DNA of 64,000 nt, taken from positions 1,216,001 to 1,280,000 of the forward strand of contig JASGHG010000001.1 of assembly GCA_047602425.1 (NCBI GenBank). Reading direction: 5' to 3'. Below are positions 10,320 to 32,501 of the stretch, piece by piece. Positions within the stretch are counted from its first letter, which is position 1. The number at the start of each line of letters is the position of its first letter. The notes beneath the pieces are model-generated. The model was not told the origin of the DNA. It saw nothing but the letters and a program-made list of their open reading frames with translations, and searched no databases. This DNA is from Nibricoccus sp. (GTDB lineage Bacteria; Verrucomicrobiota; Verrucomicrobiia; Opitutales; Opitutaceae). The translations under genes were made by a program, and so were the position numbers.

Positions 10320-10363
10320 GGTCGGTTGCTATCCTGTACTACCGCTAATAGCCCCTATTAGCG
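10320..10363 (+). promoter_or_regulatory. Candidate ECF-type promoter overlapped by a 9-bp inverted repeat
   Basis: GGTCGG-N17-CGCT; CGCTAATAG-CCC-CTATTAGCG at 10343-10363. Confidence 0.35.
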
Positions 10364-10639
10364 AAAACTAGATCCACCACTGCGCCAATTTTAAATGCAC
10401 TTATTATTGTAGGTAAAAAACTTACAGAATCGTTAAAAATTTGTGAGCTCCTAAAGTTGATTATTTGCAAATTTTTTGCAATTAGTATGCCCGCAACCCC
10501 TACCCCAGCTCGGAAAATACCCCAGCCAGTTTTTCAGCGAAAAAGCCGCCCCTTTGTTTCTGTTCACACCACGTTGTTAGCACTCACGCTAGCCGCTTGT
10601 ATGAAAGTACATACAAAGAACCCTCAACCCCAAAAATCC

Positions 10640-11866
10640 ATGCTTCAGACCTCAAAACGACTGCCCACTCTCGCCACTGTTACCCTTTTTGCTCTTCTGC
10701 AAACCACAGCTTCGGCCGCGACTTGGTACGTGGCCACCACCGGTAGCGATTCGAACGCCGGCACGCTGGCCGCGCCTTTCAAGTCCATCACCAAAGCCCA
10801 GACCGCCGCCGCCTCGGGCGACACGGTGCTGATTCGCGGTGGCACGTACAATAGTTTCACCATCGCCGCTTCGGACAGCACGTACAACTACGTCCACGTT
10901 CTCAGCAAGGCCAACGTCACTTATGGCGCCTACAACGGTGAAGTGCCGATTTTTAATTTTTCCAGCATTTCAACTTCGCTGCGTGTCTGCGGTTTTCGTA
11001 TTACAGGCTCGGGCATTATTCTCAACAGCCTTGTGGTGACCGGCGTCCCGGTCGGCAGCCAGAAACAATCCGAAGCCTTCCGCATCGATGGCAGCGCCGC
11101 GAGTTGCACCTTCAACAAATGCGTCGCCCGCGACAATGCCGCCAACGGTTTCTATTTCACCAACAAATCCACCGGCACCTGCAACAACTGCGACGCCTAC
11201 AACAACGTTGGGCCAACCAGCACTTCGATTGGTAATACCGATGGGTTCGGTGCGCACGGCAATGGCGTGACGTTCAACTATTGCCGCTCCTGGCATAACA
11301 GCGACGACGGCTACGATTGCATCGCTTCCTATGGCGCCAACACTTTCAACCATTGCTGGGCTTACGACATGACCGCTGGTGGCGACTCCAACGGTTTCAA
11401 AATCGGCGGCTGGGGCACTACCACGCCTCCGAGTTCGGTGCCCGTTCACACCGTCAAATATTGCCTCGCGGCCAACAACAACGCCCATGGTTTCTACGCC
11501 AATCACCAGCCCGGCCAGTCGGCCAATTGGACTAACAACACCGCCTACAACAACAAGGCCGCCAACTATGACATGCTTGAGCGTGTGAGCGTCACCGATG
11601 CCACCGACATTGCCGGCACCCGAGAAGTGCTTCACTACAACATCGCCTTTACTGGCACGACCATCATCAACGACAACAACCCCGCCGCCAATAAAACCAA
11701 TAACTCCTGGACCAAGAGCGGCGTGACTGTTTCCTCGGCCGATTTCCAAAGCACCGATGCCAGCCAGATGACGAGCACCCGTCCCTCCGGCAACCCCAAT
11801 TTGCCGGTGATCACCTTCATGAATCTCGTCAGCGGCAGCGATCTCACAGGCATGGGCTGCTTCTAA
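10640..11866 (+). CDS. Secreted polysaccharide lyase family 9 (pectate/RG lyase-like), copy 1
   Basis: Signal peptide, YVATTGSDSNAGT..PF, GNTDGF, NSDDGYD, GDSNGFKIGG (PL9 Ca/Lys motifs); start trimmed to ATG 10640. Confidence 0.88.
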   Translation: MLQTSKRLPTLATVTLFALLQTTASAATWYVATTGSDSNAGTLAAPFKSITKAQTAAASGDTVLIRGGTYNSFTIAASDSTYNYVHVLSKANVTYGAYNGEVPIFNFSSISTSLRVCGFRITGSGIILNSLVVTGVPVGSQKQSEAFRIDGSAASCTFNKCVARDNAANGFYFTNKSTGTCNNCDAYNNVGPTSTSIGNTDGFGAHGNGVTFNYCRSWHNSDDGYDCIASYGANTFNHCWAYDMTAGGDSNGFKIGGWGTTTPPSSVPVHTVKYCLAANNNAHGFYANHQPGQSANWTNNTAYNNKAANYDMLERVSVTDATDIAGTREVLHYNIAFTGTTIINDNNPAANKTNNSWTKSGVTVSSADFQSTDASQMTSTRPSGNPNLPVITFMNLVSGSDLTGMGCF

Positions 11867-11894
11867 GATATTGTCCCACCCACACTAACCCCGG

Positions 11895-11927
11895 CCGGGG
11901 GTGCGCTGAGCACCTCCGGTTTTTTTT
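11895..11927 (+). terminator. Intrinsic terminator after PL9 copy 1
   Basis: CCGGGGGTGC-GCTGA-GCACCTCCGG followed by T8. Confidence 0.8.
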
Positions 11928-12026
11928 GTCATCAAAAAATCACCAGTCACCGCATTTGATTTTCCGATCGTTGCCATTTGATTCACCGCCTACCCGCCAC
12001 ACCCGCTGCCGCGAATCCCCCTTTGT

Positions 12027-12053
12027 AATCGGCAACACGTTTTTGCTTTCGCC
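12027..12053 (+). promoter_or_regulatory. Candidate ECF-type promoter
   Basis: AATCGG-N17-CGCC, ~60 nt before the PL9 copy 2 start. Confidence 0.35.
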
Positions 12054-12112
12054 TTTTTCCGCCGGCAACCCCGCCGACGGTCCACAACAACCACATAAAA
12101 GAACCATACCCC

Positions 12113-13348
12113 ATGTCTGCAATGCGTCACACCACCAAGCGTCTGCCAGCCCTCGCCGCGGCAGCGCTCTTCGTCCTGCTACAAACCGCGGCCTCCGCCG
12201 CCACTTGGTACGTCGCCACCACCGGGAGCGATTCCAACGCCGGCACCAGCTCCGCGCCGTTCAAGTCCATCACTAAAGCCCAATCGGCCGCCGCCTCTGG
12301 CGATACGGTTTATGTCCGCGGCGGCACCTACAGCAGCTTCACCGTTGCCGCTTCCGACAGCACCTATAACTACGTGCACGTCCTAAATAAAGCGAATATC
12401 ACCTATGCAGCCTACGGCACCGAAGTGCCGACCTTCAACTTCTCCAGCGTTTCCACCTCGCTCCGCGTGTGCGGATTCCGTGTCACCGGCTCGGGCATCA
12501 CCATCAACGGTTTTGTTGTGACCGGGACGCCCGTCGGCAGCCAGAAACAATCCGAATGCTTCCGCATCGATGGCAGCGCCGCGAGTTGCACGTTCAACAA
12601 ATGCGTCTGCCGCGACAATGCAGCCAATGGCTTTTACTACACGAACAAGTCGTCAGGTACAGTCAATAACTGCGACGCGTACAATAACATTGGCACGAGC
12701 AGCACGTCTGTTGGGAATACCGATGGGTTCGGCGCGCACGGCAATGGCGTGACTTTCAACTACTGCCGCTCCTGGCACAACAGCGACGACGGCTACGATT
12801 GCATCGCTTCCTATGGCGCAAATACCTTCAACCATTGCTGGGCCTACAACATGACGGCCGGCGGCGACTCGAACGGTTTCAAAATCGGCGGCTGGGGCAC
12901 TTCGACGCCACCCAGTTCCGTGCCGGTCCACACCGTCAAATACTGCCTCTCGGCCAGCAACAACTCGAACGGTTTTTACGCCAATCATCAGCCCGGCCAG
13001 TCCGCCAATTGGACTTACAACACCTCGTACAACAACAAAAGCGCCAACTACAACATGCTCGAGCGTGTGAGCGTGACCGATGCCACCGATATCGCCGGCA
13101 CCCGCGAAGTATTCCACTACAATATCGCTTTCACCGGCACCACGATCTCGAATGATAACAATCCCGCGGCCAACAAGACCAACAACTCCTGGACCAAGAG
13201 CGGCGTCACAGTCTCCTCAGCCGATTTCCAAAGCACCACGGCCAGCCAAATGACCAATGCACGCGGCACTGGTTCGCCCAATTTGCCCACTATCACCTTC
13301 ATGCACCTCGTGAGCGGCAGCGACCTCACCGGCATGGGCTGCTTCTGA
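12113..13348 (+). CDS. Secreted polysaccharide lyase family 9, copy 2
   Basis: Same motifs as copy 1 and colinear with it, both ending SGSDLTGMGCF. Confidence 0.88.
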   Translation: MSAMRHTTKRLPALAAAALFVLLQTAASAATWYVATTGSDSNAGTSSAPFKSITKAQSAAASGDTVYVRGGTYSSFTVAASDSTYNYVHVLNKANITYAAYGTEVPTFNFSSVSTSLRVCGFRVTGSGITINGFVVTGTPVGSQKQSECFRIDGSAASCTFNKCVCRDNAANGFYYTNKSSGTVNNCDAYNNIGTSSTSVGNTDGFGAHGNGVTFNYCRSWHNSDDGYDCIASYGANTFNHCWAYNMTAGGDSNGFKIGGWGTSTPPSSVPVHTVKYCLSASNNSNGFYANHQPGQSANWTYNTSYNNKSANYNMLERVSVTDATDIAGTREVFHYNIAFTGTTISNDNNPAANKTNNSWTKSGVTVSSADFQSTTASQMTNARGTGSPNLPTITFMHLVSGSDLTGMGCF

Positions 13349-13382
13349 GCATACATAAAACGAACCTCTGTTGACCATCTTC

Positions 13383-13420
13383 AGCCGGGGCCGCTTACCG
13401 TCGTACGTCCCCGGCTTTTT
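13383..13420 (+). terminator. Intrinsic terminator after PL9 copy 2
   Basis: AGCCGGGG...CCCCGGCT followed by TTTT. Confidence 0.6.
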
Positions 13421-13424
13421 ACTT

Positions 13425-14228
13425 ATGAAACGCGCCCGCTCTCTTCCCCTCCTGTTTGCCTTCTGTGTTATTAGTACTGTTGTATGTTTCGGTCAGAAAC
13501 TTCCGCAGGAAGCCCGGCCCCAGGCGCTCAGCCTCGATCTTGGCGGCGGCATCATGATGGATTTCGTCCTCATCCCTGCGGGCAGTTTCCTCATGGGCGG
13601 CGATGAAAACTCCGGCGATGGCGACGAATACCCTGCCCACAAAGTCATTTTCTCAAGACCCTTTTACCTCGGCAAATACGAGGTCACTCAGGAGCAATGG
13701 TCGCTCCTTATGGGCAAAAACCCAAGCCAGTTTAAAGGGCCAAAGCTTCCCGTGGAAACCGTCAGCTGGAATGACTGCCAGATTTTCCTTTCCCGGCTCG
13801 CCGAAAAGACCGGCCGCCACGCGGTCCTGCCCACCGAAGCTCAATGGGAGTACGCCTGCCGCGCGGGGACTTCCTCTTCCTGGTTCCACGGCGTCTCCGA
13901 CCGGCTCGCCGCCGATTATGCCTGGTATGGCGAGAATTCCGAAAACAAAACCCACCCCGTAGGGCTAAAGAAACCAAATCCGTGGGGACTTTACGACATG
14001 ACTGGCAATGTCTGGGAATGGTGCGCGGATTTTTACCAAAAACACGCGTATACAAAGGGCGAAGCCATCGATCCCACGGGTCCAGCGAAGGGCGAAGCCC
14101 GCATCACTCGCGGCGGCGCCTGGGGTGATAATACCGAATTACTGCGCTCCTCCGCCCGCAATTGCGCGGGCCCTGAAATCGCAAACCAAGGCCTAGGTCT
14201 AAGGTGCGCGATTCTCCTTCCAGACTGA
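13425..14228 (+). CDS. Formylglycine-generating-enzyme (SUMF1/FGE-sulfatase) fold protein, secreted
   Basis: IPAGSFLMG, YEVTQ, LPTEAQWEYACRAG, NPWGLYDMTGNVWEW, RGGAW, GLRC; lacks the CxxxxC catalytic pair of true FGE. Confidence 0.9.
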   Translation: MKRARSLPLLFAFCVISTVVCFGQKLPQEARPQALSLDLGGGIMMDFVLIPAGSFLMGGDENSGDGDEYPAHKVIFSRPFYLGKYEVTQEQWSLLMGKNPSQFKGPKLPVETVSWNDCQIFLSRLAEKTGRHAVLPTEAQWEYACRAGTSSSWFHGVSDRLAADYAWYGENSENKTHPVGLKKPNPWGLYDMTGNVWEWCADFYQKHAYTKGEAIDPTGPAKGEARITRGGAWGDNTELLRSSARNCAGPEIANQGLGLRCAILLPD

Positions 14229-14255
14229 TCTTGTTTTTAAAATCCCACGCGAGAT

Positions 14256-15353
14256 TTACTCCTTCGGACGTTCGCGTTCCGCCTGTTCCTCTTTCAGCAT
14301 TTTTTCCACGCGCTCTTTTTCCGGCAGCGTCCTGATCCAGGCTTGGGCGGCGTTTGCGTCCACTTTCAGCCAGGCGCGCGCCAACGCATCGACTGCATCG
14401 GAGCGCAAGTTGATATCCGTCGAATGAGAAAGCCAATTCGCCGCGTCCGCCGGCGATTTTTCCGACCAGATTTCGACGATGGACTGCGCCGTCTCTTTGA
14501 GCGCGCCTTCCGTCTTCACCGCGTTCGAAAGCCATTGTGCGCCAAGATCGGGATCGCCCATCGCAATCGCCTTGGCGGTCATGACCAGCGTTTTTTCACG
14601 CAATGCCGGATCGGCAATGGTGCCAACCAAACCAATCGCACCCGACAAATCCCGCGTCGCCCAGTCATAAACAATGGTCTCAAGCGCATTCGTTTGCTCC
14701 TTTCCGGGTTTCATCTGTCTGGCCAAAGCCGCGGCTTGGGGCGGACTTTTCGCGACCGCGATCAAACTGGCTTCGCCCAAAAAGGTCTGTTTCCAGCCTG
14801 TATCCGGCAAATCGTTACAATACAAATTAAGCGTCTGTTCGTCAGACAAGAGCTGTTGCGCGACGAGTCTCGCCTGCAAATCCGTGGCGCTCGGCTGGCT
14901 CGACATCCAGTTCGCCGCTTCCGAGGGATTGACCTTCAACCATTGTTCGAATGCCAGCAGGCCAAAAGGCGAACTCAGCTCGTCGTCAGAGAGCATCCGG
15001 GTAAGCTCGGCCGCGTTTTCCTTGGTCAGCAAGGCCTTCATCGTCTCCAACAAACGTTCCCGTGCAGCTTCGTCTTCGGTTTGGGTCTGTCCCCATTGGG
15101 TTAATTTCAACCGGATCAGCGCCTTCACGTCGCTCAGCGGAATTCCTGCCGTCTCATCGTCCTTGCGTTCGACGATAAGAGCAGGCGTTTCCTTCGCATC
15201 CGGTTTTTGAATACTGGCCGTTGACCTCTCAGTTGGCGGTTCGGCCTGGGGTCGAACTTTCGGCCCATCCGTGCGGAACCAATAGGCTACGCCAAGGGCC
15301 AAAACGATGACAGCCGAAATCAACCCTGCAATTTTGGGCTGGTGGTTTTTCAT
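14256..15353 (-). CDS. Hypothetical N-terminally anchored helical-repeat protein
   Basis: N-terminal TM (IAGLISAVIVLALGVAYWF), repeated W..xDPxxAxxW-like units. Confidence 0.7.
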   Translation of the reverse strand: MKNHQPKIAGLISAVIVLALGVAYWFRTDGPKVRPQAEPPTERSTASIQKPDAKETPALIVERKDDETAGIPLSDVKALIRLKLTQWGQTQTEDEAARERLLETMKALLTKENAAELTRMLSDDELSSPFGLLAFEQWLKVNPSEAANWMSSQPSATDLQARLVAQQLLSDEQTLNLYCNDLPDTGWKQTFLGEASLIAVAKSPPQAAALARQMKPGKEQTNALETIVYDWATRDLSGAIGLVGTIADPALREKTLVMTAKAIAMGDPDLGAQWLSNAVKTEGALKETAQSIVEIWSEKSPADAANWLSHSTDINLRSDAVDALARAWLKVDANAAQAWIRTLPEKERVEKMLKEEQAERERPKE

Positions 15354-15422
15354 AGGGTAACGTTTCCAAAAATCCATGGCACTTTGCGGGTTTGCAAGCG
15401 CCATGAACAGATGACACGCCCG

Positions 15423-17816
15423 CTATGGTTTTTTCAAAAGACGGATGCCGTAAATCGATCCTGTACGAGAGCCTGATTTGGCCACGAACTTCACCTCCAG
15501 CGTGCCATCGTCCTTTGCAAGAGAATCAGGAATTGAATAACTGACGTCATCGAATTTGTCGGGAGTGCGGCCGTTGAGTTTCACGGTGGAAACGACGACG
15601 CCGTTGACCACGAGATCGAATTCGCGGCGGTTCTCACCCAAAGAATACGTCACGAGCAGTTCGGCGCTGCAGCCTTTCTCGCCGCGCAGGGTGTAACCGA
15701 ACCATTTGCCAGAATCCCGCCAGCGTCGGCCGAGGCTTGCGCCCGTGGCGGAATCGTCCCCCGCATAGGCATGTTCCACCTCAGGTTGCTGCTCGCCCGG
15801 ATTAACCTGGTCAAGCGTGCGGGCCTCGAGCGCGAGTCGTGCATTTTCCTGCACGGCAAGTTCCGAGAGCAGTTTGGCGTGTCCTTCCGGCGTCACCGTG
15901 CGCCAGTAAATCATGTAGCGCGAATCGTGCACGCGGAAGAAAGGCACGAGTTCAAGTTTACCCGCTTCGACCGGCCGGATGAGATCCTGCGCGGTAAAAG
16001 TCATGGGATGGCCTTTGACGGGAACAATATGTTCGGCAAGATGCGCGGGATCCCCCACCAGCATCGGCGCGCGATCGAGCGGAAGCATCGGACCCTCCGT
16101 GCGGTGCCCCATGCGGCCATCGTTGGCGATGAGGTCGGTCAATGGTTCGGTTTCCGTCTTCGCCGCGAGCACGATCGGACCGCGCAGCACCGCGACATAG
16201 TCGGAGCCATCGGGCAGACGTTCTGTTGTAGTCTGCATCGGCAGCTCAATCTCGACGCAATCGCCGTTGTTCCATTCCCGGTCGATGACAACGAATTCGC
16301 CGGGCTTCGTGCCGGACAAGGCTCGCACCTTGCCGTTTATGCGCACGACAAAATCGCCAGATCGCACCCAAGACGGCTGACGGAGTTTCAACTCAAAGCG
16401 CTGCGATTTCTTCAACGATAAAACAAGCCGCGTGCGCTCTTCGTCGGGGAATTTCGTTTCCTGCCGCAGCTTCAAGTCGCGCTCGATCCAGTTGAGTTCG
16501 GAGGCGATGAATAGGTTCACATAAAGCGCGTCATTGGTACGCGCGTAGATGAATTGCCCGTACTTTCCGTGATTTTCGATGCCGCTGCCCACACAACACC
16601 AGAAGCATTCTGTCGGTTGTGAATAGTTTCGGTAATGACGCGGACGGATCGGCGTGAAGTAAACGAAGCCGCCGCGTTCCGGATGCTGCGAAGACAGAAT
16701 GTGGTTAAAAAGCGCCCGTTCGTAATAGTCCGCATAGCGGGCTGATGGGTCGCTGCGAAACAATTGCTCGGTGAGCCGAAGCATATTGTAGGTATTGCAG
16801 GTTTCGGGACCTTCGCGGGTCTCGACCATCGATGAAAAATCCTCAGCCGGGTGAAAATGTTCGCGCACGCTGTTCCCGCCGAAAGCGACGCTGCGCCGTT
16901 CCACCACGGTCTGCCAAAAGAATGCGGCCGCGCTATTCCACGCCGGATCGCCACGAAGTTCCGCGATGCGCGCGAAACCGATGACCTTGGGAATTTGGGT
17001 GTTGGCATGAAGCCCGGTGAGCGGATCGGAGTTTTTCAGCAGCGGATCGAGCAGAACGCGGTGCGAAAACCGTTTTGCCAGTGCGAGGTATTTCGCGTCG
17101 CCGGTAATTGCACAGACATCGGCAAGCACTTCGTTCATTCCGCCGTGCTCGCAACGCATCATTTGTTGGAGCTGTTCATCGGTTAGACCTGCCAGCAGGC
17201 GGTCGCACCAATCCGCGAGCGCGACGAGCACATCCCGCGCCTGGGCGTTGCCGGCGATGGTCCAAGCATCGCGCAAACCGGCAAAGGTTTTGTGCAGGTT
17301 GTACCAGGGCACCCATTTTCCGTTGATGGAAAAGTTGTCGACCTTCAGCTTGCCCGCCGCGAGTTCCCGCCAAAGTTCGCGGTCCCCGGGGCAACCGCCG
17401 ACATAGCCGTCGCCATTGGCGCGCTGACAGGCGGCCATTTCGCTCACCATATAATCGAGCCGCCGCACGATCTCCGCGTCTCCCGTCGTCACCGCCATCT
17501 GCGCGAGCGCCGTCAAATAGTGGCCGGCGGAATGGCCATCGAGACCCGTGCTTTCCCAGTTGGGATATTTTTTCGCCTTCGAGGGAAGACCGGATTCCGC
17601 GCGAAATGGTGCCATGAAACGGTCCACATCGAGCGCCAGCATGTAGCGCAAATCGACCTCTTGGGCGGACTTGAAGGGGCCGTCGAGCAGTCGCACGTCG
17701 CGCAAACCGAACTCTTTTACAGAGGCAATTGCGGGTTGCCCGCCGACGCCGAAGGCGCGAATTGCGAGGCTGGCGATGGCAAAAAAGGCGGCAATGCGCA
17801 GGGGCAGTTTCTTCAT
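15423..17816 (-). CDS. GH127/GH146-type beta-L-arabinofuranosidase, secreted
   Basis: WESTGLDGH, PWYNLHK, EHGGMNE, HANTQIPK, GGNSVREHF, ETCNTYN, FWCCVGSG; start trimmed to ATG 17816. Confidence 0.9.
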   Translation of the reverse strand: MKKLPLRIAAFFAIASLAIRAFGVGGQPAIASVKEFGLRDVRLLDGPFKSAQEVDLRYMLALDVDRFMAPFRAESGLPSKAKKYPNWESTGLDGHSAGHYLTALAQMAVTTGDAEIVRRLDYMVSEMAACQRANGDGYVGGCPGDRELWRELAAGKLKVDNFSINGKWVPWYNLHKTFAGLRDAWTIAGNAQARDVLVALADWCDRLLAGLTDEQLQQMMRCEHGGMNEVLADVCAITGDAKYLALAKRFSHRVLLDPLLKNSDPLTGLHANTQIPKVIGFARIAELRGDPAWNSAAAFFWQTVVERRSVAFGGNSVREHFHPAEDFSSMVETREGPETCNTYNMLRLTEQLFRSDPSARYADYYERALFNHILSSQHPERGGFVYFTPIRPRHYRNYSQPTECFWCCVGSGIENHGKYGQFIYARTNDALYVNLFIASELNWIERDLKLRQETKFPDEERTRLVLSLKKSQRFELKLRQPSWVRSGDFVVRINGKVRALSGTKPGEFVVIDREWNNGDCVEIELPMQTTTERLPDGSDYVAVLRGPIVLAAKTETEPLTDLIANDGRMGHRTEGPMLPLDRAPMLVGDPAHLAEHIVPVKGHPMTFTAQDLIRPVEAGKLELVPFFRVHDSRYMIYWRTVTPEGHAKLLSELAVQENARLALEARTLDQVNPGEQQPEVEHAYAGDDSATGASLGRRWRDSGKWFGYTLRGEKGCSAELLVTYSLGENRREFDLVVNGVVVSTVKLNGRTPDKFDDVSYSIPDSLAKDDGTLEVKFVAKSGSRTGSIYGIRLLKKP

Positions 17817-18153
17817 TAAAGAGCACAAAATCCGCACAACCAGCGGGTTCAAGCCCGCCTCCACATGACTGTACAGTAAATGACGCATCCGCGAGCGGTC
17901 CGACAACTTGACTCTCCTCTGAAAACTGCCAGTTTCATCACACCACACCCATAGGTTCCGAGCTTCCCATCGGGACCGAATAAACCAGCCCCCAAACGAC
18001 TTCCCGCCAGGACATTGTGTACCCGCAAATCCAGCAGCTTCTGCGTCTGCGAATCGCAAAGTCCGCCCCAAAAATGAACTTCCCTCATCCGCAGTCGACC
18101 GTGCTTTTGCCCTCCAAAGCGCGTGCCGCGAATGAACAGAGTTTTCCCCAGCC

Positions 18154-18711
18154 ATGAGCGAAATCACCCTCTTGCTCGAAGCCAATGCCCGTGGCGATGG
18201 TTGTGCCGCCGGCGAACTTCTTCCCCTCGTCTACGACGAACTTCGACGGCACGCCTCCGTCCGCATGTCGCACGAACTCGCCGGACAAACCCTGCAACCC
18301 ACCGCTTTGGTGCATGAGGCCTGGTTGCGGTTATTTGGCACAGGCGACCAGCGCTGGATGAATCGCGCGCACTTTTTCGGCGCCGCCGCAGAGGCGATGC
18401 GCCGCATCCTGATCGAAAAAGCCCGCAGCAAGCTCCGTCTGAAACGTGGCGGCGTGCAGACCCGCCTCGACATCAACGAGGTGGAACTGGCCTCAAGCAT
18501 GCCCGAGGAAAAAGTGCTCCTGATCGACGACGCGCTTGAGCAGTTGAAAATTCAGGATCCGGAAAAAGCCCGCGTGGTCGTGCTGAAATTTTTTGGCGGA
18601 TTATCCAACCAGGAAGTTGCCGAGACCATGGGCGTGACCGAACGCACCATCGAGCGCCACTGGGCTTATGCCAAGGCTTGGTTGTTCCAATGCATCCGCG
18701 CCCAGAAATAA
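18154..18711 (+). CDS. ECF sigma factor, TIGR02999/kinase-associated type
   Basis: LLPLVYDELRR, TLQPTALVHEAW, RAHFFGAAAEAMRRILI, FFGGLS..EVA, W..AKAWL. Confidence 0.93.
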   Translation: MSEITLLLEANARGDGCAAGELLPLVYDELRRHASVRMSHELAGQTLQPTALVHEAWLRLFGTGDQRWMNRAHFFGAAAEAMRRILIEKARSKLRLKRGGVQTRLDINEVELASSMPEEKVLLIDDALEQLKIQDPEKARVVVLKFFGGLSNQEVAETMGVTERTIERHWAYAKAWLFQCIRAQK

Positions 18712-18735
18712 GGGCGCTCACGCAACGGCCCGCCC

Positions 18736-21064: not shown

Positions 21065-21091
21065 TGTCGGCTTTTGGCCTCCATCGGCGCA
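21065..21091 (+). promoter_or_regulatory. Candidate ECF-type promoter for the TonB-dependent receptor
   Basis: TGTCGG-N17-CGCA, 57 nt before the ATG; weaker AGTCGG-N17-TGCA at 20993-21019. Confidence 0.5.
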
Positions 21092-21147
21092 ATAGAATAA
21101 GCGGGGTACGTTCCAGGGTGCCTCTTTCACCAAGAAACCCTAAAACC

Positions 21148-23955: not shown

Positions 23956-23974
23956 TCGCGTTTCCTCCAATCTG

Positions 23975-24013
23975 ACGCCTGACAATCAAAGCCTTTGGTT
24001 GTCAGGCGTTTTT
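23975..24013 (+). terminator. Intrinsic terminator after the TonB-dependent receptor
   Basis: ACGCCTGACAATCAAA-GCC-TTTGGTTGTCAGGCGT followed by TTTT. Confidence 0.8.
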
Positions 24014-24177
24014 GTTTTCACAAAAGCCTTGGATGTATTCGACAGCTGGGGGCCGAGGGCTGCATCGGTTCGTAAAGCGAGGTGCGTCCACACAAAACCG
24101 GATCAACCACCAGCCAAAAAACAGCAAAATCGGCATCATTGACGGCTTCGATTCGTTGAATCGATTTCGCCCCAAAT

Positions 24178-24204
24178 TGTCGGGTTTCGCCGCTCGATAT
24201 CGCA
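24178..24204 (+). promoter_or_regulatory. Candidate ECF-type promoter for the GH43 operon
   Basis: TGTCGG-N17-CGCA, with boxes and spacing identical to the 21065 site. Confidence 0.5.
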
Positions 24205-24578
24205 TGGAGAGATGAGGCTATATTCCCCGTTTAACCTCACACACCAACCCTGTCGGCCAAGGGCCTCCCCCGAAAGCCGATGGACACCCTTCAACACCCA
24301 AGCCAATCCCCGCCATTTTTTTAGATACTAATCACTGTTCGGCGTTTCATCCCAGCTTCGCCCTTAACACCAACGCCGTTCGCAAATTACCGTTTTCGCC
24401 GGCCCCCGCGATCACGATAAGTCTCAATTTGTAAGTTATTTATTGCTATTAAATTTGGGGAGCTCAAGGGAAACTCCATGGGCGGGCCGGGGCTCGTCCA
24501 TGGAGCCAATTTCAAAACTATCCACAGCGATTCCAAAACCTCCGCGATAAAACCTGCGCCCATCCGCACAACGCACCA

Positions 24579-25610
24579 ATGTTGCCCATCTTCCACACCG
24601 TCGCCCGCCTGACCTTGGCCGCCCTTTGCGTCGCCACCAGTTTAGGCACTTCGAGCGCAAAACAAGTGAGCCCTCATGACCCCGTCATGGCGAAGGAAGG
24701 CAACACCTACTACCTTTTCAGCACCGACCCGGGCATCCGTTTCTACGCGTCGACCGACATGGTCACTTGGAAACTTGCCGATCAAGTTTTCCATACCGAA
24801 CCCACTTGGGCCAAAAAAGTTGCCCCCGGATTCAACGGACATCTCTGGGCGCCCGACATCATTCAGAAGGACGGAAAATTCTACCTTTACTACTCCGTTT
24901 CCGCCTTCGGCAAAAATACCTCCGCCATCGGAGTCACCACGAACAAAACCCTCAACCCCGCTTCACCTGATTACAAATGGGAAGATCAGGGCATCGTAAT
25001 CGAATCCGTTCCTGGCCGCGACAATTGGAACGCCATCGATCCCAACGTCGTGGTTGACGACCAAGGCACAGGTTGGATGAGCTTCGGCTCTTTTTGGGGC
25101 GGGCTGAAACTCTTCAAGCTCGACGCTAGCTGGACCAAGCCCGCCGAACCACAAGAATGGCACACAATCGCCCGCCGTGAACGCCCGGCTTTCACGGACG
25201 ATCGCACCGGCGGCCCCGCTGCCCTCGAAGCCCCTTTCATCTACAAAAAAGGCGAGTATTTTTACCTCTTCGTTTCGTGGGACCGCTGCTGCGCCGGCAA
25301 AGATAGCACCTACAAAATGGTGATCGGACGTTCGAAGGATGTTCGCGGCCCCTACCTCGACAAAACCGGCAAAGACATGGCCAAGGGCGGAGGCACGCTT
25401 CTCCTCGCCGGCAACGAAAAATGGCCCGGCCTTGGCCACAACGGCGTGTACAATTTCGACGGTAAGGACATTATAGTTTTCCACGCTTACGAAACCGCGG
25501 ACCGCGGCCTGCAAAAACTAAAAATCGCCGAACTCCTCTGGGACCAAGATGGCTGGCCCTTCATCGATCCCGCCGTGCTCGATACCTACCAAAGCGTGCT
25601 CGTGAAATAA
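24579..25610 (+). CDS. GH43 endo-1,5-alpha-L-arabinanase (ArbA/AbnA-like)
   Basis: Signal peptide, HDP, LWAPD, YYSVSAFGKNTSAIG, NAIDP, FGSFWGG, LEAPFI, WDRCC, GHN. Confidence 0.9.
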   Translation: MLPIFHTVARLTLAALCVATSLGTSSAKQVSPHDPVMAKEGNTYYLFSTDPGIRFYASTDMVTWKLADQVFHTEPTWAKKVAPGFNGHLWAPDIIQKDGKFYLYYSVSAFGKNTSAIGVTTNKTLNPASPDYKWEDQGIVIESVPGRDNWNAIDPNVVVDDQGTGWMSFGSFWGGLKLFKLDASWTKPAEPQEWHTIARRERPAFTDDRTGGPAALEAPFIYKKGEYFYLFVSWDRCCAGKDSTYKMVIGRSKDVRGPYLDKTGKDMAKGGGTLLLAGNEKWPGLGHNGVYNFDGKDIIVFHAYETADRGLQKLKIAELLWDQDGWPFIDPAVLDTYQSVLVK

Positions 25611-25661
25611 TTTTTCCGCTCTCTCGCCGCTCGTTCTCCCTGCTCCCCCGCTCCCCGCTCA

Positions 25662-27242
25662 ATGAACAACTCCCCGTCCTCGCAAAAACTTTCTTTCATC
25701 GAGAAACTCGGCTTCGGCGCCGGCGACCTCTCCATCAACGTCGTCGTCTACTCGCTCTTCATGCTCCTTCTGATTTTTCAGACGGACGTGTTCGGCCTGA
25801 CACCTGCCGACGCGGGTAAACTTGGACTACAAATTAGAGCGCTGGATGCACTGCTGGACCTGACGATGGGCGTCATCACCGACAAGTTTAATACGCGGTG
25901 GGGACGTTACCGGCCCTACCTCCTGCTCTTCGCCATTCCTTTTGGACTTTCCATCGTTCTGCTCTATACCACGCCTGATTTCACTAGCTACGCGAGCAAA
26001 CTAGTTTGGGCTTACGCGACATACGCGTTCACCATGGTTATGTTTACGGCAGTCGTGATCCCGTACATTTCGCTGCCTGGGGTCATTACCAATAGTCCTC
26101 AGGAACGGCTCTCCGCCAATGGCTATCGCCTCTTCATGGCTAAAGTTGGCGCAACCGCCTTAGCGTTCGCTGTGCCGCTACTCGTGAAAGAATGGGGCAT
26201 GGGTAATCCAGCAAAAGGATACCAACTCGCGATGGGACTAATGGGGGTTGTTGCAGCGGTTCTTCTGTTATTCTGCTTTTTTACTACAAAAGAACGAGTT
26301 CAGCACACAGCCGATAAAATCTCGCTATGGGCACAGTACAAAATGCTCATGAAAAACGATCATTGGCTTATCCTGTGTGCAGTTTGCGTTATAGGTACCA
26401 TCGGCTACGTCATCCGGACCGGCGTTGCCGCTTACTATGCTAAATACTATTTAGGCGGGGACGAAAAAGTTCTAGCGACGTTTTTAACCGTCAGCACTGT
26501 CGCATCGATTCTCGCGATGGTCGCCTCGACGTGGATCACAAAGCGCATCTGTAAACTCCAGCTCTTTCGTTGGAGCCAAATTATCGCGATGTTGATCAGC
26601 GTCGCGATGTATTTCGTGGTCAAACCAGGCGACACGATGCTGGCTTTCGTTTTCTTCTTCGTAATTTTCTTTGTCGTAGATCTCCATGCGCCCGTCTTCT
26701 GGTCATTGATCTCCGAATCCATCGACTATGGTGCCATCAAAACCGGCGAACGTGTCACGGGCCTAGCCTACGGCGGTATTTCATTTTACCAAAAAGCAGG
26801 TGGTGGTTTGGCGACTTGGATCACGAGTTATTTGCTGACGTATTGCCACTACGTGCCAAACCAAATCCAAAGTGATGGCGCGCTAAGAATGATCGCGCTG
26901 ACCACAGCAGTCATCCCGGCCATCTTTAATCTCCTTATGGCTTTGGTCATGTTTAAATACAAAATCACTGACAAATATTACCACCTGATGCTTTCGAATC
27001 CTGCCTCTGTCGATCTGCATGGCGGCAAACTAACACGCGCGACAAATCATATCCTGGCAATTGGTATCATCGCCCTGACCTGCATGTTTTTCTATTTCAT
27101 TTTGGATTCTACCGAGCTTGTGGCGTTCATGCCTCGTTGGATAGGCCTTTCGATTACCACGGCCGGGATCATCTGGCTCGTTGTCGACTACTTTAAAAAT
27201 CAGTCCGATAAGGCGCGTTCTTCCCCCGCGGTCAATAGCTAA
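25662..27242 (+). CDS. Glycoside-pentoside-hexuronide (GPH) MFS cation symporter with C-terminal extension
   Basis: EKLGFGAGD, GVITDKFNTRWGRYRPYLL, IDYG..KTGER..G, many TM segments. Confidence 0.92.
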   Translation: MNNSPSSQKLSFIEKLGFGAGDLSINVVVYSLFMLLLIFQTDVFGLTPADAGKLGLQIRALDALLDLTMGVITDKFNTRWGRYRPYLLLFAIPFGLSIVLLYTTPDFTSYASKLVWAYATYAFTMVMFTAVVIPYISLPGVITNSPQERLSANGYRLFMAKVGATALAFAVPLLVKEWGMGNPAKGYQLAMGLMGVVAAVLLLFCFFTTKERVQHTADKISLWAQYKMLMKNDHWLILCAVCVIGTIGYVIRTGVAAYYAKYYLGGDEKVLATFLTVSTVASILAMVASTWITKRICKLQLFRWSQIIAMLISVAMYFVVKPGDTMLAFVFFFVIFFVVDLHAPVFWSLISESIDYGAIKTGERVTGLAYGGISFYQKAGGGLATWITSYLLTYCHYVPNQIQSDGALRMIALTTAVIPAIFNLLMALVMFKYKITDKYYHLMLSNPASVDLHGGKLTRATNHILAIGIIALTCMFFYFILDSTELVAFMPRWIGLSITTAGIIWLVVDYFKNQSDKARSSPAVNS

Positions 27243-27271
27243 GCCCATACGATCTCTAAATCGCCTAAACC

Positions 27272-28225
27272 ATGGCCAACCTCCAAGCCCTTCTTCCTCT
27301 CATCCAGCAGCGCGCCGATCCGTGCATCCGCAAGCACACCGACGGCTATTATTATTTCGTTGCGTCGTACCCCATCTACGACCGCATCGAACTGCGTCGC
27401 GCCAAAACCATCGCCGAGCTCGCCATCGCGCAGACATCCGACGTCTGGAAAAAACCGGACATCGGTCCCTACAGCGAGCTCATCTGGGCTCCGGAAATTC
27501 ATTTCAACATGGGAGCATGGTACATCTATTTCGCCGCAGCCCCTTCGCGTGCCATCAAGGACGACCTTTTCCAACACCGCATGTACGCGATCACCACCAA
27601 CGCGGAGAACCCGTTGTGGGGAGAGTGGAAATTTTGCGGTCAGATCAATACGGGCTTCGACACGTTCTGCCTCGATGCCACGACGTTCACCCACAAAGGC
27701 GTGCTCTACTACGTCTGGGCGCAAAAAGAGCCCGGCATTCACGGCAACTCCAACCTTTACATCGCGCGCATGGAGACGCCGTGGAAACTCACGGGCAAAC
27801 ACGTGCGCATTTCCATACCCGAATACGATTGGGAAACGCACGGTTTCTCCGTCAACGAAGGCCCGTCGGTGCTCATTCGTCGCGGCCGCGTGTTTATCAC
27901 CTATTCGGGCAGCGCCACCGACGAAAACTACGCCATGGGCCTGCTCCACGCCGACGAAAACGCCGATTTGCTCGACCCAAAGAGTTGGACCAAATCGCCC
28001 AAGCCGGTCTTCCTGACCAACTTCGAGCTCGGCCTGTACGGCCCCGGCCACAACTCCTTCACCGTCGCCGAGGATGGAGTCACCGATATGCTGGTCTACC
28101 ATGCCCGCACTTATACCGAGATCAAAGGCGACCCGCTGTGGGACCCCAACCGCCACACCTATGTCAAAGCATTGAAATGGGGTTCCGATAATATGCCCAT
28201 TTTCGGCCGCCCCGGGGAAGCCTGA
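27272..28225 (+). CDS. Cytoplasmic GH43 alpha-L-arabinofuranosidase
   Basis: QRADP, IWAPEIH, FCLDATTF, VNEGP, GPGHNSF, DPNRHT; no signal peptide. Confidence 0.9.
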   Translation: MANLQALLPLIQQRADPCIRKHTDGYYYFVASYPIYDRIELRRAKTIAELAIAQTSDVWKKPDIGPYSELIWAPEIHFNMGAWYIYFAAAPSRAIKDDLFQHRMYAITTNAENPLWGEWKFCGQINTGFDTFCLDATTFTHKGVLYYVWAQKEPGIHGNSNLYIARMETPWKLTGKHVRISIPEYDWETHGFSVNEGPSVLIRRGRVFITYSGSATDENYAMGLLHADENADLLDPKSWTKSPKPVFLTNFELGLYGPGHNSFTVAEDGVTDMLVYHARTYTEIKGDPLWDPNRHTYVKALKWGSDNMPIFGRPGEA

Positions 28226-28291
28226 CTACAACCCGTCCTCGCCGAACCGATACCCAATTTACAGCACCCACAGCCTAGTTCCTTCTTCGCC

Positions 28292-30283
28292 ATGAAAGTC
28301 TTCAGCCTTCTTGCCCTCAGCCTCGCCGCAGCCCTCTCACTACGCGCTCAAACCACTCCGACGTTCGCCGACGTCACCGTCCACGATCCTTCTGTCATCA
28401 AGGAAGGCACTCGTTGGTATGTCTACGGCTCCCACGGAGCCTCGGCTTGGACAACCGACCTGATGCATTGGAACCAAGTTGCGGTCAGCGTAAACTCGGG
28501 CAGCCCCGCACATTTCAATACTTTTCAAACCGAGTTGTCGGACCTCATCAGTTGGACAAGCGCCACCACGCTTTGGGCGGCCGACATCAAAAAGCTCAAC
28601 GGCAAATTCTATTACTACTACAACGTCTGGAATAACCCCGGCGGCGCGTACCGCAGCTACATGGGACTAGCAACCTCCAACACCATCGAGGGTCCTTACA
28701 CCAACACCGGCAATCTCCTGAAAGGCGGCGATACGGGCTTCAATGCAGCGATCCATCCCAATACGGTCGATCCTGCCGTTTTCTACAATGCCGACAGTAG
28801 TAAATTGTGGATGCTCTATGGTTCGTACTCCGGAGGCCTGTTCATACTCGAACTCGAAAACGACACCGCCTCAGCCAATTTCGCCAAACCCAAAGCTGGA
28901 CAGGCGAATCTCGGCTTTGGCAAAAAACTTTTCGGCGGCAACCATGCGCAAATCGAGGGTGGATACGTGGTCTACGATCCGGATACGCAATTCTACTATT
29001 TGTTCATGTCCTTCGGCGGCCTCGGCGCAGAAACAGGCACTTACAACATGCGCGTAGCCCGGTCGGTTAACGCCGATGGTCCTTTCCTGGACTCGGCTGG
29101 CACTGACCTCTCTACCCTCACAACAAGCGGCACTTTGTCGACGATCGCTCCCTATGGCGTGAAGCTCATGGGCAATGTGCAGTTTGCGCATGTGGCCGCT
29201 GACAAGGGCGCGACCGCCTCCGCCGGTTACGTCTGCCCGGGCCACTGCTCCGTCTATCGTGATCCGACAACGAAACAGTATTTCCTGATCTTCCACACGC
29301 GATTTTTCTCCACAACCGCCGACCAGGGACATTCAGTCCGCGTACATCAGATGTACATGAATGCAGATGGCTGGCCAGTCGCCTCGCCCCATCGTTATGC
29401 CGGCGAAACGATAGCCATCACCCCCACCGCCAACCTCCTTGGCGATTTCAAAGTGATCGTTCAAAACAAGTCGATGCCCACCACCACTCAAAGTGGTTCG
29501 GTTTACACGATTCCAATGAACACGTCGTCGGTCGCCACGTTCCACGCCGACGGCACCATCACAGGCACTTACACGGGCACGTGGTCCATAACCAATGACA
29601 CCGGCAACACCAAATCCTATGCTACCATCGTGATCGGCGGGACCACTTACAAGGGCGTCTATTCCACCCAATGGGATAACGACAACCAGGCGTGGGTGCC
29701 CTGCTTCAGCGCGATTTCCACCGGTGCGGCCGCCGCCATCGACAATGGCGTCGCGCTTTGGGGCAGCAAAGTTTCCGCCACCCCCGTTGCCCCTGTCTTC
29801 ACTACGCAGCCCACCAGCAGCGTGGCTTTGAATGTCGGCAGTTCCCTCTCGCTCAACGCAGTCGCCTCTGGCGTCTTCACTCCCGACTATCAGTGGTATA
29901 AGGACGGCGCGCTCATCAGCGGTGCGAACACCAATACCTACACCGTAAACAACGTTACGACTGGCCACGCGGGTGTTTACTACGTCACTGCTGTCAACAC
30001 CGCCGGCATCGCCACCAGCAACACCGCTACGGTCACCATCACGAGCAGTTCCTCGTCGTCATCGAGCTCGTCTTCCTCCTCGAGCTCCTCGTCCAGTTCG
30101 TCCTCCTCCAGTTCAAGCAGCAGCTCATCGAGCTCCTCTTCGTCCTCGAGCAGTTCGAGCGGCAGCCCCAATCCCCCGGCTCCCGCCCCGAGCGGTGGCG
30201 GCGGTGGTGGCGCTCCAAGTCTCTGGTTCCTCAGTGCCATCTTTGCCTTGGGCCTCCTGCGCCGAACCATAACCCGTCGCTAA
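28292..30283 (+). CDS. Secreted GH43 arabinanase-like enzyme + C-terminal domain + Ig-like domain + poly-Ser + GlyGly-type anchor
   Basis: VHDPS, LWAAD, NTVDP, YGSYSGG, IEG, FHTRF; P.FTTQP..YQWYKDG Ig domain; 39 Ser; GGGGGAPSLWF-TM-RR. Confidence 0.88.
   Translation: MKVFSLLALSLAAALSLRAQTTPTFADVTVHDPSVIKEGTRWYVYGSHGASAWTTDLMHWNQVAVSVNSGSPAHFNTFQTELSDLISWTSATTLWAADIKKLNGKFYYYYNVWNNPGGAYRSYMGLATSNTIEGPYTNTGNLLKGGDTGFNAAIHPNTVDPAVFYNADSSKLWMLYGSYSGGLFILELENDTASANFAKPKAGQANLGFGKKLFGGNHAQIEGGYVVYDPDTQFYYLFMSFGGLGAETGTYNMRVARSVNADGPFLDSAGTDLSTLTTSGTLSTIAPYGVKLMGNVQFAHVAADKGATASAGYVCPGHCSVYRDPTTKQYFLIFHTRFFSTTADQGHSVRVHQMYMNADGWPVASPHRYAGETIAITPTANLLGDFKVIVQNKSMPTTTQSGSVYTIPMNTSSVATFHADGTITGTYTGTWSITNDTGNTKSYATIVIGGTTYKGVYSTQWDNDNQAWVPCFSAISTGAAAAIDNGVALWGSKVSATPVAPVFTTQPTSSVALNVGSSLSLNAVASGVFTPDYQWYKDGALISGANTNTYTVNNVTTGHAGVYYVTAVNTAGIATSNTATVTITSSSSSSSSSSSSSSSSSSSSSSSSSSSSSSSSSSSSSSSGSPNPPAPAPSGGGGGGAPSLWFLSAIFALGLLRRTITRR
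30044..30160 (+). repeat. Poly-serine linker (39 codons, mixed synonymous)
   Basis: Mixture of AGC/AGT/TCN codons. Confidence 0.95.
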
Positions 30284-30290
30284 TACCCCC

Positions 30291-30315
30291 GGAGGGCGAC
30301 AGCCCATTGTCGCCG
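30291..30315 (+). repeat. REP-like palindrome with GGAG foot (copy 2)
   Basis: GGAG-GGCGACA-GCCCAT-TGTCGCC-G; compensatory change relative to the 8707 copy. Confidence 0.55.
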
Positions 30316-30395
30316 CTTAGCTTTTCAAAATCCTCTCCTTCACAGAGGCGCAGTCTTTCCATGCGCCTCCGTAGCTCTCTTTCTCTGTTTTCCCG

Positions 30396-32501
30396 ATGAA
30401 ATACCTCGCCTTGCTGGCCGCCACCATCGTCGCCCTAACGAACTACCTGCCAGCGGCCAATCCGATCATTACCAGCATCTATACCGCCGACCCCGCGGCG
30501 CTCGTGTACGGCGACAAGGTTTATCTCTACACCGGGCACGACGAGGGTTCCACCAGCTACGTCATGAAGGACTGGCGGTGTTTTTCCTCTTCCGACATGA
30601 TCAATTGGACGGCCGAGGGCTCCGTCATGTCGCTGGCAACTTTTCCCTGGGCCAATCAGGTCATTGATGCCTGGGCCGGTCATGTCGTCGAGCGTGGCGG
30701 CAAGTTCTACTTCTACGCCCCCGTCAACCATGGCTCAGCGGCGCTAACCGGCTTCGCCATCGGCGTCGCCGTGGCCAATTCCCCCACCGGGCCTTTCGTC
30801 GATGCCAAAGGCTCCGCCCTCATCACCAACAACATGACGCCTGATCCAAACGGTCGCACCGATGTCTGGAGTTGGGACGACATCGATCCTGCCGTCTTCA
30901 TCGACGACGATGGCCAGGCCTACCTTTTTTGGGGCAACACCATCCTGCACTACGTGAAATTGAAGGCCAACATGATCGAACTCGATGGCACGATCCAAAC
31001 CATTTCCCTGCCCCAATTCACCGAGGCGCCGTGGATCCATAAACGCAATGGCATTTACTATCTCACCTACGCCTATGGCTGGTTTGAGAAAATCGCCTAC
31101 GCCACCGCCACCAACATCAATGGTCCGTGGACTTTCCGCGGCGTCATCTGCGAAACCGTCCAGAACTCCAACACCGTCCACCAATCCATCATCGATTTCA
31201 AAGGACGCTCCTACTTCATCTACCACAACGGCGCTCTTCCCGGCGGCGGGAGCTACCGGCGTTCCGTTTGTGTCGAATTTCTCAACTACAACGCGGACGG
31301 CACGATCGTCCCCATCGCACAAACCACCACCGGCATTGTCGCCAACTCCATCTTCGCCAACCCCACCAGCGTGGCGCTCGATAGCAGCGGCAACCTTTTC
31401 GTCGCCGATTCGACCCGGCATACCGTGGGCAAAATTTCCACCACCGGCCAATTTTCTCTTTTTGCTGGTTCCCCTGATGCGCAGGGCTCGACCGATGCCA
31501 CTGGCATCGCCGCCAGTTTCCGCCAGCCCACCGGCCTTGCGATCGACTCCAACAATAATCTCTACGTTTCCGACACCGGCAATTCCACCGTACGTAAAAT
31601 ATCCGCTGCCGGCGTCGTGACGACATTGGCTGGTTCGGCTTCCAACTCCGGTTCTATCAATGGCACCGGCTCAGCCGCACGCTTTTCCTCGCCAACAGAC
31701 GTTACCGCCAAAGCCGATGGCACGCTCTACGTCGCCGATACGGGCAATCATATCCTGCGCGCCGTCACTTCCGCCGGCGTGGTCTCCACCGTTGCAGGTT
31801 CGGCGGGGACCTCGGGCACCGCTGACGGCACGGGCTCGGCCGCACGTTTTAACGGCTCCGCTGGCGTCGCGGTCAATTCCACGTCTGGCGTCGTTTACGT
31901 GGCCGACACCACTAACAACACGCTGCGCGCTTCCACTGCCGCCGGCGTCGTCTCTACACTTGCCGGCACCTACGGCATTGCCGGATATGCCGATGGCACC
32001 GGCGTCAACGCCACGTTCTCGGGACTCACTGGTTCGGCTGTCGCCTCCAATGGCGACATCTACGTCGCCGATACCCAAAATTCCACCATCAGAAAAATTT
32101 CCTCCATGGGTGTGGTAACCACAGTGGCTGGAACTGCCGGTGTCGCCGGATACAAGGACGGCACCGGCACCAGCGCGTGGTTCAACAAGCCTCGCGATGT
32201 CGTCGCCGATACTTCCGGCAACCTCTACGTCGCCGATACTGGCAACGCCGTCATCCGCAAAATCGATGGCAATGGAATCGTGACCACGATCAGCGTCAGT
32301 TCTTCGTCCAGTTCCTCAAGCAGCAGTTCCTCGTCGAGTTCGTCCAGCTCTTCCAGCTCTGGCAGCGGAAGTTCCAGTTCCGGCGCCGCTCCTGCACCTG
32401 CGCCCGCCACCGGCGGTGGAGGCGGTGGTGGTGCACCTAGCCTCTGGTTCGTCTTTGCGCTTTTCTCGCTCGCCAGTCTGCGCAAGTTCGCCCGCCGATA
32501 A
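30396..32501 (+). CDS. Secreted GH43 (xylosidase/arabinofuranosidase-like) + NHL repeats + poly-Ser + GlyGly-type anchor
   Basis: YTADP, YTGHD, AWAG, DIDPAVFIDDDG, FTEAPW; repeated LYVADTGN..IRKI; 21 Ser; GGGGGGAPSLWF-TM-RK. Confidence 0.88.
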   Translation: MKYLALLAATIVALTNYLPAANPIITSIYTADPAALVYGDKVYLYTGHDEGSTSYVMKDWRCFSSSDMINWTAEGSVMSLATFPWANQVIDAWAGHVVERGGKFYFYAPVNHGSAALTGFAIGVAVANSPTGPFVDAKGSALITNNMTPDPNGRTDVWSWDDIDPAVFIDDDGQAYLFWGNTILHYVKLKANMIELDGTIQTISLPQFTEAPWIHKRNGIYYLTYAYGWFEKIAYATATNINGPWTFRGVICETVQNSNTVHQSIIDFKGRSYFIYHNGALPGGGSYRRSVCVEFLNYNADGTIVPIAQTTTGIVANSIFANPTSVALDSSGNLFVADSTRHTVGKISTTGQFSLFAGSPDAQGSTDATGIAASFRQPTGLAIDSNNNLYVSDTGNSTVRKISAAGVVTTLAGSASNSGSINGTGSAARFSSPTDVTAKADGTLYVADTGNHILRAVTSAGVVSTVAGSAGTSGTADGTGSAARFNGSAGVAVNSTSGVVYVADTTNNTLRASTAAGVVSTLAGTYGIAGYADGTGVNATFSGLTGSAVASNGDIYVADTQNSTIRKISSMGVVTTVAGTAGVAGYKDGTGTSAWFNKPRDVVADTSGNLYVADTGNAVIRKIDGNGIVTTISVSSSSSSSSSSSSSSSSSSSSSGSGSSSSGAAPAPAPATGGGGGGGAPSLWFVFALFSLASLRKFARR

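Follow-up and report, generated by a model that had tools for sequence, protein, structure and literature searches.

The window analysed here is a 64,000-nucleotide stretch of the 5.16-Mb genome of Nibricoccus sp., in which the locus under study occupies positions 10320 to 32501. Genes for an extracytoplasmic function (ECF) sigma factor and a membrane-spanning Ser/Thr kinase, hereafter the pair, lie at its centre, upstream of genes for a TonB-dependent receptor, four GH43 enzymes and a GPH symporter. A sequence-only reading of this DNA had listed these genes together with two PL9 lyases and a GH127/146 enzyme, and had proposed that the kinase activates the sigma factor to govern all of them as a pectin and arabinan utilization locus. 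Scans of the window open reading frames (ORFs) with Pfam and NCBIfam located every one of these genes in the span. Synteny, co-occurrence and a promoter motif before arabinan genes both near and far argue that a kinase-activated sigma factor does govern glycan genes, but not the 22-kb locus as it had been drawn: the sequence evidence supports a dispersed, genome-wide arabinan regulon with a defined promoter as its target. The features that bear on this argument are:

18154..18711, + strand: ECF43-like sigma factor of 185 amino acids (TIGR02999, PF07638), with QPTA including Thr50, and Ser114-Ser115 in the linker
18736..20946, + strand: Hanks-type Ser/Thr kinase of 736 amino acids (PF00069), with an N-terminal extension, kinase domain at residues 98-382, transmembrane segment at about 421-445 and ectodomain at 449-736
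20080..20943, + strand: predicted periplasmic, all-helical TPR-like solenoid (AlphaFold2), the candidate sensor
21065..21092, + strand: candidate sigma-specific promoter TGTCGG-N17-CGCAA before the TonB receptor gene (24.5 bits, matrix from other genomes)
21148..23955, + strand: TonB-dependent receptor, TIGR01782 type, with Plug and barrel domains only
23974..24010, + strand: intrinsic-terminator-like hairpin of 17 pairs after the receptor gene, the top stem of a hairpin scan whose total stem count was not above shuffles
24178..24205, + strand: second candidate promoter, TGTCGG-N17-CGCAT (29.6 bits), before the GH43-GPH-GH43-GH43-GH43 run
24579..25610, + strand: GH43, AbnA-like endo-1,5-arabinanase with a signal-peptide-like N-terminus (NF053747, 312 bits, cut-off of 480 not reached)
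25662..27242, + strand: GPH glycoside:cation symporter (TIGR00792, over cut-off)
27272..28225, + strand: GH43 without an evident signal peptide (PF04616), kept after the GPH gene in relatives
28292..30283, + strand: GH43, AbnB-like endo-arabinanase with GH43_C and Ig domains (NF053746, 446 bits, cut-off of 750 not reached)
30396..32501, + strand: GH43 with NHL repeats (family scan)

The names AbnA and AbnB denote resemblances only, since the NCBIfam arabinanase scores fall below their cut-offs; the GH43 at 27272..28225 is likely a cytoplasmic arabinofuranosidase. The locus had been described as SusD-less and as having no anti-sigma gene. Indeed, neither a SusD nor an anti-sigma family match was found among the window ORFs scanned, which included the neighbours of the pair, and no anti-sigma gene is conserved beside the pair in relatives. 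The tandem susC-susD genes that define a polysaccharide utilization locus (PUL) in Bacteroidota are absent from the window locus. Absence of SusD is expected with a TIGR01782-type receptor, as in Xanthomonas- and Caulobacter-type loci. Cell-surface signalling of the FecA/FecR/FecI type through this receptor was ruled out, as the protein has only Plug and barrel domains and there was no FecR match.

The sigma factor matched TIGR02999 with 204 bits (cut-off 126) and PF07638 with an E value of 1e-56. It is the sole over-cut-off TIGR02999 match in the genome, which holds approximately 40 ECF-like candidates. Alignment placed its residues 48-51, QPTA with Thr at position 50, on QAED of M. tuberculosis SigL, confirming that QPTA stands where most ECF sigma factors have DAED. 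Of 103 aligned sigma factors, 100 have Thr at the same position, and in the linker the clade conserves a Ser/Thr patch that may match T106 of EcfK. In common with ECF43 systems, we found PF07638/TIGR02999 membership, a Thr at the DAED site of region 2.2, a kinase gene in the +1 position and no anti-sigma gene nearby; the label ECF43-like refers to these shared features. Our own sigma tree was made by a quick method only and does not resolve branches inside Opitutales. The ECF43 group was described in 2021 as proteobacterial only and was later widened to over 900 members.

The kinase gene begins 24 bases past the sigma gene. Its product matched PF00069 with an E value of 9e-46, and all Hanks motifs could be read in the translation (GEGGCG, VALKIIK, HGDIKPSN and DFG), in a non-RD variant. 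The best PDB match was 9EED, the PknS kinase domain (E 3e-55), over residues 3-397 including the N-terminal extension. The catalytic loop was HGD in 44 of 52 orthologues read, with 8 keeping HRD. Among paralogues it was HRD in 21 of 22, and other partner kinases are likewise almost all HRD, whereas those of the arabinan clade are mostly non-RD. There is one hydrophobic segment, at residues 421-445, which is predicted as a transmembrane segment with a positive-inside pattern in 53 of 54 orthologues. The basic residues of this single segment lie towards the kinase domain, which would place the C-terminal 288 residues in the periplasm, a location predicted from charge bias only. The protein thus shows the single transmembrane segment and the TPR-type ectodomain, predicted to be extracytoplasmic, of ECF43-type kinases.

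The ectodomain was modelled as an all-helical TPR-like solenoid (AlphaFold2 pLDDT 91.5, pTM 0.87). Its top structural match was MalT domain III (PDB 1hz4; root-mean-square deviation 7.2, 245 residues aligned), with a Z score of 14.9 that is not clear of those of unrelated helical repeats (13.7 and 13.3). Searches of Pfam, PDB folds and the ESM Atlas gave no named family beyond generic TPR, with all Atlas scores below 0.9; the missing family name is no proof that the fold is new. The domain is highly conserved, at a mean column identity of 66%. It has invariant Trp, Asp and Arg residues. Trp515, Trp629 and Trp714 are retained in all clades, and orthologues and paralogues alike also have Lys589 and Asp716, while Asp542, Asp585, Phe625, Asn661, Phe713 and Phe715 are fixed only within the arabinan clade. 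Such a pattern would be expected of a common pocket whose specificity varies.

We next consider the gene neighbourhood of the pair in other genomes, where the sequence-only reading had suggested looking for an association with glycan genes. A sample of at least 80 loci provided 35 with a full orthologous ectodomain and 40 controls with other kinases; five loci were dropped, four ending at a contig end and one without called genes. Arabinan homologues were counted by catalytic-domain BLAST only, a restriction that removed apparent GH43 matches in L006, L067 and L177, which were NHL or Ig repeats. Among the matches listed, arabinan-type GH43/GH51 homologues occurred in 21 of the 35 orthologous loci, a TonB homologue in 24 and either in 27, compared with an arabinan GH43/GH51 or TonB gene in 0/40 control loci of other TIGR02999-like sigma factors. 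In a second orthologue set (n = 18), which partly overlaps the first and is counted with it as 53 other loci, 17 had such a homologue. The closest named loci, among the matches listed, belong to Nibricoccus, Opitutus, Lacunisphaera and Opitutaceae, and other recurrent neighbours were GH51, AraA, ribulokinase-like FGGY, sugar ABC transporter and LacI genes (95 of 198 cluster representatives scanned). Co-occurrence in whole genomes pointed the same way. The ectodomain (E < 1e-70) was present in 13 of 40 Opitutales genomes, all 13 of which have at least two AbnA-like genes, one of them within approximately 15 kb. Only two of the remaining 27 genomes have AbnA-like genes, one each, and eight genomes with other TIGR02999 sigma factors have none.

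Downstream of the kinase gene, 24 of 33 loci in relatives carry a bipartite motif of ECF type, TGTCGG-N17-CGCAT, and one more has it at the sequence edge. The motif seed was picked by eye from a listing that included the window; the scoring matrix was built from the 24 sites of the 33 other loci, excluding the window and L015 and including L037 and one weak match in L024. A scan of the Nibricoccus genome with this matrix gave 8 sites above 21 bits, as compared to a mean of 0.3 and a maximum of 1 in 20 column-shuffled matrices. All eight are intergenic and lie 80-404 bases upstream of a same-strand gene, six of them far from the window, and they lead two TonB receptor genes, five arabinanase-like GH43 genes and one GH51 gene. 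The window sites lead the receptor and the first GH43; a site of its own for the GH43-GPH run makes sense because a hairpin follows the receptor gene. The sites outside lead a second TIGR01782 receptor, three AbnA-like GH43 genes, two of which encode ricin-type lectin domains, an AbnB-like GH43 gene and the GH51 gene. A ninth site, of 20.9 bits, falls inside another gene. The second motif-led receptor gene adjoins thiamine salvage genes (L083:4582-9886; G000:C1:1568581 onward). The araB-araA-araD-like genes, found with aldose epimerase and sodium:solute symporter genes (L197:2638-10941; G000:C1:1022637-1030940), have no motif and are divergent from a LacI gene. The AbnA-like gene beyond reach of the motif adjoins propeller-type histidine kinase genes.

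Four tests favour this sigma factor as the likely reader of the motif. A copy of the motif on which the matrix was not trained stands between the sigma and kinase genes in 19 of 35 loci, among the matches listed. Five genomes in which the pair lies apart from arabinan genes have arabinanases elsewhere, and there every one of the 15 sites scoring more than 20 bits leads a GH43 or TonB homologue, as compared to 0 of 14 weaker ones. Of 49 pattern matches in all, 30 were scored; those of 23-38 bits were only in pair-bearing genomes, and 12 in 10 pair-less genomes did not exceed 19.3 bits. Finally, the arabinanase genes of two pair-less genomes had no site (maxima of 0.7 and 6.6 bits).

Taken together, the support for control of glycan genes by the pair exceeds what their proximity alone had suggested, and we hold it probable, on balance, that the pair is a regulator dedicated to arabinan degradation and import that acts through a phospho-switch and arabino-oligosaccharide sensing. 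The parts of this proposal differ in strength. That the sigma factor reads the motif and drives the arabinan genes is very likely, and that it is activated by phosphorylation is likely, by analogy with EcfP and EcfK; direct binding of oligosaccharides by the ectodomain is a step towards which we lean. Basal endo-arabinanase activity would release arabino-oligosaccharides, which the TonB receptors would carry into the periplasm, where they may bind the TPR-like ectodomain of the kinase, as the logic of the regulon and the example of BT0366 suggest. The sigma factor would be inactive until the kinase phosphorylates Thr50, and perhaps the linker too, and would then transcribe from TGTCGG-N17-CGCAT promoters. 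In many relatives, the motif copy before the kinase gene would add positive feedback. Arabinose catabolism (araBAD) would be left to the separate LacI regulator.

Four known systems resemble parts of this scheme. The EcfK/PknS system of Xanthomonas citri controls a type VI secretion system directed at amoebae (PMC13147305). Like it, the present system has a sigma factor with a region 2.2 Thr and a kinase gene in +1, and the kinase, as in PknS, has an N-terminal extension, one transmembrane segment and a predicted periplasmic TPR-type domain, with 9EED as best PDB match. In contrast, the predicted output here is arabinan enzymes and transporters, the ectodomain forms a distinct family, and the catalytic loop is mostly HGD. 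In EcfP/PknT of Vibrio parahaemolyticus, STTA replaces DAED, phospho-Thr permits RNA polymerase binding, and the output is a polymyxin-resistance regulon (PMC8999054). QPTA here occupies the STTA position, although EcfP serves envelope stress and not a nutrient. The arabinan PUL BT0348-69 of Bacteroides thetaiotaomicron is controlled by a hybrid two-component system (HTCS) protein, BT0366, which binds arabino-oligosaccharides with a degree of polymerization of 6 and longer (PMC3243724). Shared with it are a periplasmic oligosaccharide sensor, here a presumptive one, two outer-membrane transporters and GH43 endo-arabinanases, and the window enzymes match the BT0360/BT0367 models, below cut-off. 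However, BT0366 is a histidine kinase hybrid with a DNA-binding domain, whereas a Ser/Thr kinase and a sigma factor are found here; and SusC/SusD pairs in one cluster are replaced by TIGR01782 receptors without SusD and a dispersed regulon. MalT is a maltodextrin-responsive regulator. Its domain III is a cytoplasmic TPR-like solenoid, which shows only that this type of fold occurs in a sugar sensor.

The same regulon and phospho-switch could operate with an ectodomain that senses indirectly, through a periplasmic protein such as a GH43 enzyme, a binding protein or a loaded TonB receptor. The TPR-like fold is typically protein-binding, and the TPRs of PknS have been described as protein-interaction modules (PMC13147305). 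Yet no family-less or binding-protein gene is conserved across the orthologous loci, the receptor has no match to an N-terminal signalling domain, and the kinase gene is followed by two different receptor genes or by none; we regard indirect sensing as unlikely, though as the most serious of the alternatives. A kinase that is largely constitutive, or that answers a general cue such as arabinose, carbon starvation or plant surface contact, with arabinan specificity supplied by other regulators, would agree with the HGD loop of most orthologues and with the presence of a LacI homologue at 4 of the 53 orthologous loci. Phosphorylation of the activation loop is often dispensable in non-RD kinases. 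Nevertheless, the strong conservation of the ectodomain with its clade-specific residues, its tight co-occurrence with arabinanases and the retention of HRD in 8 orthologues make this improbable.

We also weighed whether a different ECF sigma factor, of ECF41- or ECF42-like type, reads the motif, with the pair only travelling along with the arabinan cassette. The -35 elements of ECF41 and ECF42 (TGTCAC/TGTCGA) are similar, and the genome offers many ECF-like candidates; but their -10 element is CGTC (PMC7826278 supplement) and not CGCAT, the strong pattern matches among those scored are confined to pair-bearing genomes, the motif recurs between the sigma and kinase genes, and divergent paralogues combine the -35 of the motif with different -10 elements. 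This explanation is very improbable. Equally so is control of the entire 22-kb pectin and arabinan locus by the pair. Physical proximity and a GH127 gene divergent from the sigma gene, both in the window and in L015, speak for it. However, in the 450 bases upstream of each gene in this genome, no motif site was found for any of 7 PL9, 16 PL1 and 3 GH127 genes (the best score before the window GH127 gene was -8.6 bits), PL9 lies beside the pair in 0/53 and GH127 in 1/53 other orthologous loci, and L015 has TonB and thiamine genes at the position of PL9 in the window. The pectin part of the sequence-only reading has to be dropped because of these missing motifs and neighbours, and control of pectin genes by the pair was ruled out on the PL9 and PL1 counts. 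Motif-like stretches before the GH127 gene, with spacing 2-3 bases short, and before the sigma gene scored -8.6 and -9.3 bits and were not counted.

Several observations weigh against an arabinan-dedicated, sugar-sensing pair. Within the genome, 1 of 7 AbnA-like, 3 of 4 GH51 and all 3 GH127 genes have no site in their own upstream 450 bases, and the feedback site before the kinase gene is missing (-9.1 bits); in five pair-bearing genomes, distal GH43 genes also have none. In L039, the pair and a motif before a distant TonB gene occur with no arabinan gene in view. The motif also stands beside related sigma genes whose kinases have WD40 or binding-protein ectodomains, before non-glycan genes (L037, L044, L067). 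It therefore marks a sigma subfamily and not arabinan as such; since related sigma factors with other ectodomains share it, the promoter appears to follow the sigma factor and the output the ectodomain. The promoter predicted for ECF43 is GTC at -35 and CAG at -10 (PMC7826278 supplement); TGTCGG includes GTC, but CGCAT is not CAG. The ectodomain gave no carbohydrate-binding family match in Pfam, fold and Atlas searches; by fold it resembles generic TPR solenoids, whose usual ligands are proteins or peptides. Kinship among the genomes makes the co-occurrence counts overstate independence, and they were given no p-value weight. The sequences directly establish gene content, conservation, co-occurrence and motif placement, whereas phosphorylation, promoter use and sugar binding are inferred.

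No link between ECF43-type pairs and glycan loci was found in the open-access literature. A 2024 review gives only HTCS, ECF/anti-sigma pairs and catabolite repression as common regulators of genes for carbohydrate-active enzymes (PMC10766802), and no activating molecule was established for ECF43 kinases in the portions of the literature examined. Here a known phospho-switch appears to have an output not yet described, namely a dispersed arabinan regulon, and a defined sugar emerges as the candidate signal for this kinase family. The question is directly testable because a purchasable candidate ligand, a foldable sensor domain of 290 residues, a defined promoter and eight named targets are at hand. 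If true, the proposal would explain how scattered plant-glycan genes are coordinated in Opitutaceae without SusC/SusD loci, and would offer an orthogonal sugar-inducible switch.

The ectodomain family extends further. A profile search returned 340 representatives at E < 1e-30, and the domain was found in 17 of 301 genomes of the phylum, three of which carry 5-8 paralogues. Expanded paralogous pairs of this ectodomain family lie at L159-L178 (G138, G148, G188, G202, G040). Of 20 paralogue loci, 10 contain clear glycoside hydrolases, from families GH2, 3, 27, 28, 29, 31, 43, 51, 89, 97, 106 and 115, which is suggestive only; the scan covered 96 of the 150 unlabelled ORFs, without a background rate. 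Several of these loci show the same -35 with variant -10 elements, and the arabinan-clade matrix gave no site above 15 bits near the genes of the paralogous pairs. One clade might be tuned to arabinan in Opitutales, while in the genomes with 5-8 paralogues different pairs, with altered pocket residues and -10 elements, would serve different polysaccharides, much as HTCS do in Bacteroides. That the TPR-like ectodomain represents a new oligosaccharide-binding receptor family, and ECF43-like pairs a fourth general way of controlling glycan loci in Verrucomicrobiota, is a tentative extension that we consider rather doubtful.

To the left of the sigma gene, outside the inferred regulon, the span contains:

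10640..13348, + strand: tandem PL9-like lyases (PF22842) of equal length, 86% identical
13425..14228, + strand: FGE-sulfatase-domain protein, absent from the earlier gene list and not conserved beside the pair
14256..15377, - strand: membrane-anchored protein of 373 amino acids without a Pfam or NCBIfam match, downstream of the GH127 gene and not conserved beside the pair
15423..17816, - strand: GH127/146-type beta-L-arabinofuranosidase (PF07944 with DUF4986/DUF6805), divergent from the sigma gene and arabinan-related

The tandem PL9-like genes are evidently a recent local duplication. Judged by conservation, positions 10320 to 32501 are not a single unit, as the two PL9 genes, the FGE gene and the family-less gene are not conserved beside the pair. 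In L015 (517-7266), a TonB-receptor/thiamine block adjoins GH127 and sigma genes at the position that PL9 holds in the window.

Other units with related kinases were also seen. L067:10904-12922 encodes a kinase with a periplasmic binding-protein ectodomain (PF12974), with the motif before the kinase gene and a gene for a large secreted protein, and L037:1307-11214 and L044 contain close sigma relatives with WD40-ectodomain kinases, where the motif leads genes for large secreted Ig/propeller proteins. L186:4888-14457 (G009) has two sigma/kinase units close together, first a different pair and, after it, the motif immediately upstream of the genes for the arabinan-type kinase and the GH51 and AbnB-like enzymes. 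Gene calling missed the nearer of the sigma genes, although the genome search listed one there. Within the window, a GC-rich palindrome at 24467-24506, upstream of the first GH43 gene, has a near-identical copy after the kinase gene in L015 and is possibly a repeat element or an RNA hairpin in a long leader. Further right lie an ORF of 568 amino acids without a family match (34086-35792), a DUF4450 protein of 1094 amino acids (38579-41863) and a GH78 rhamnosidase (44971-48468).

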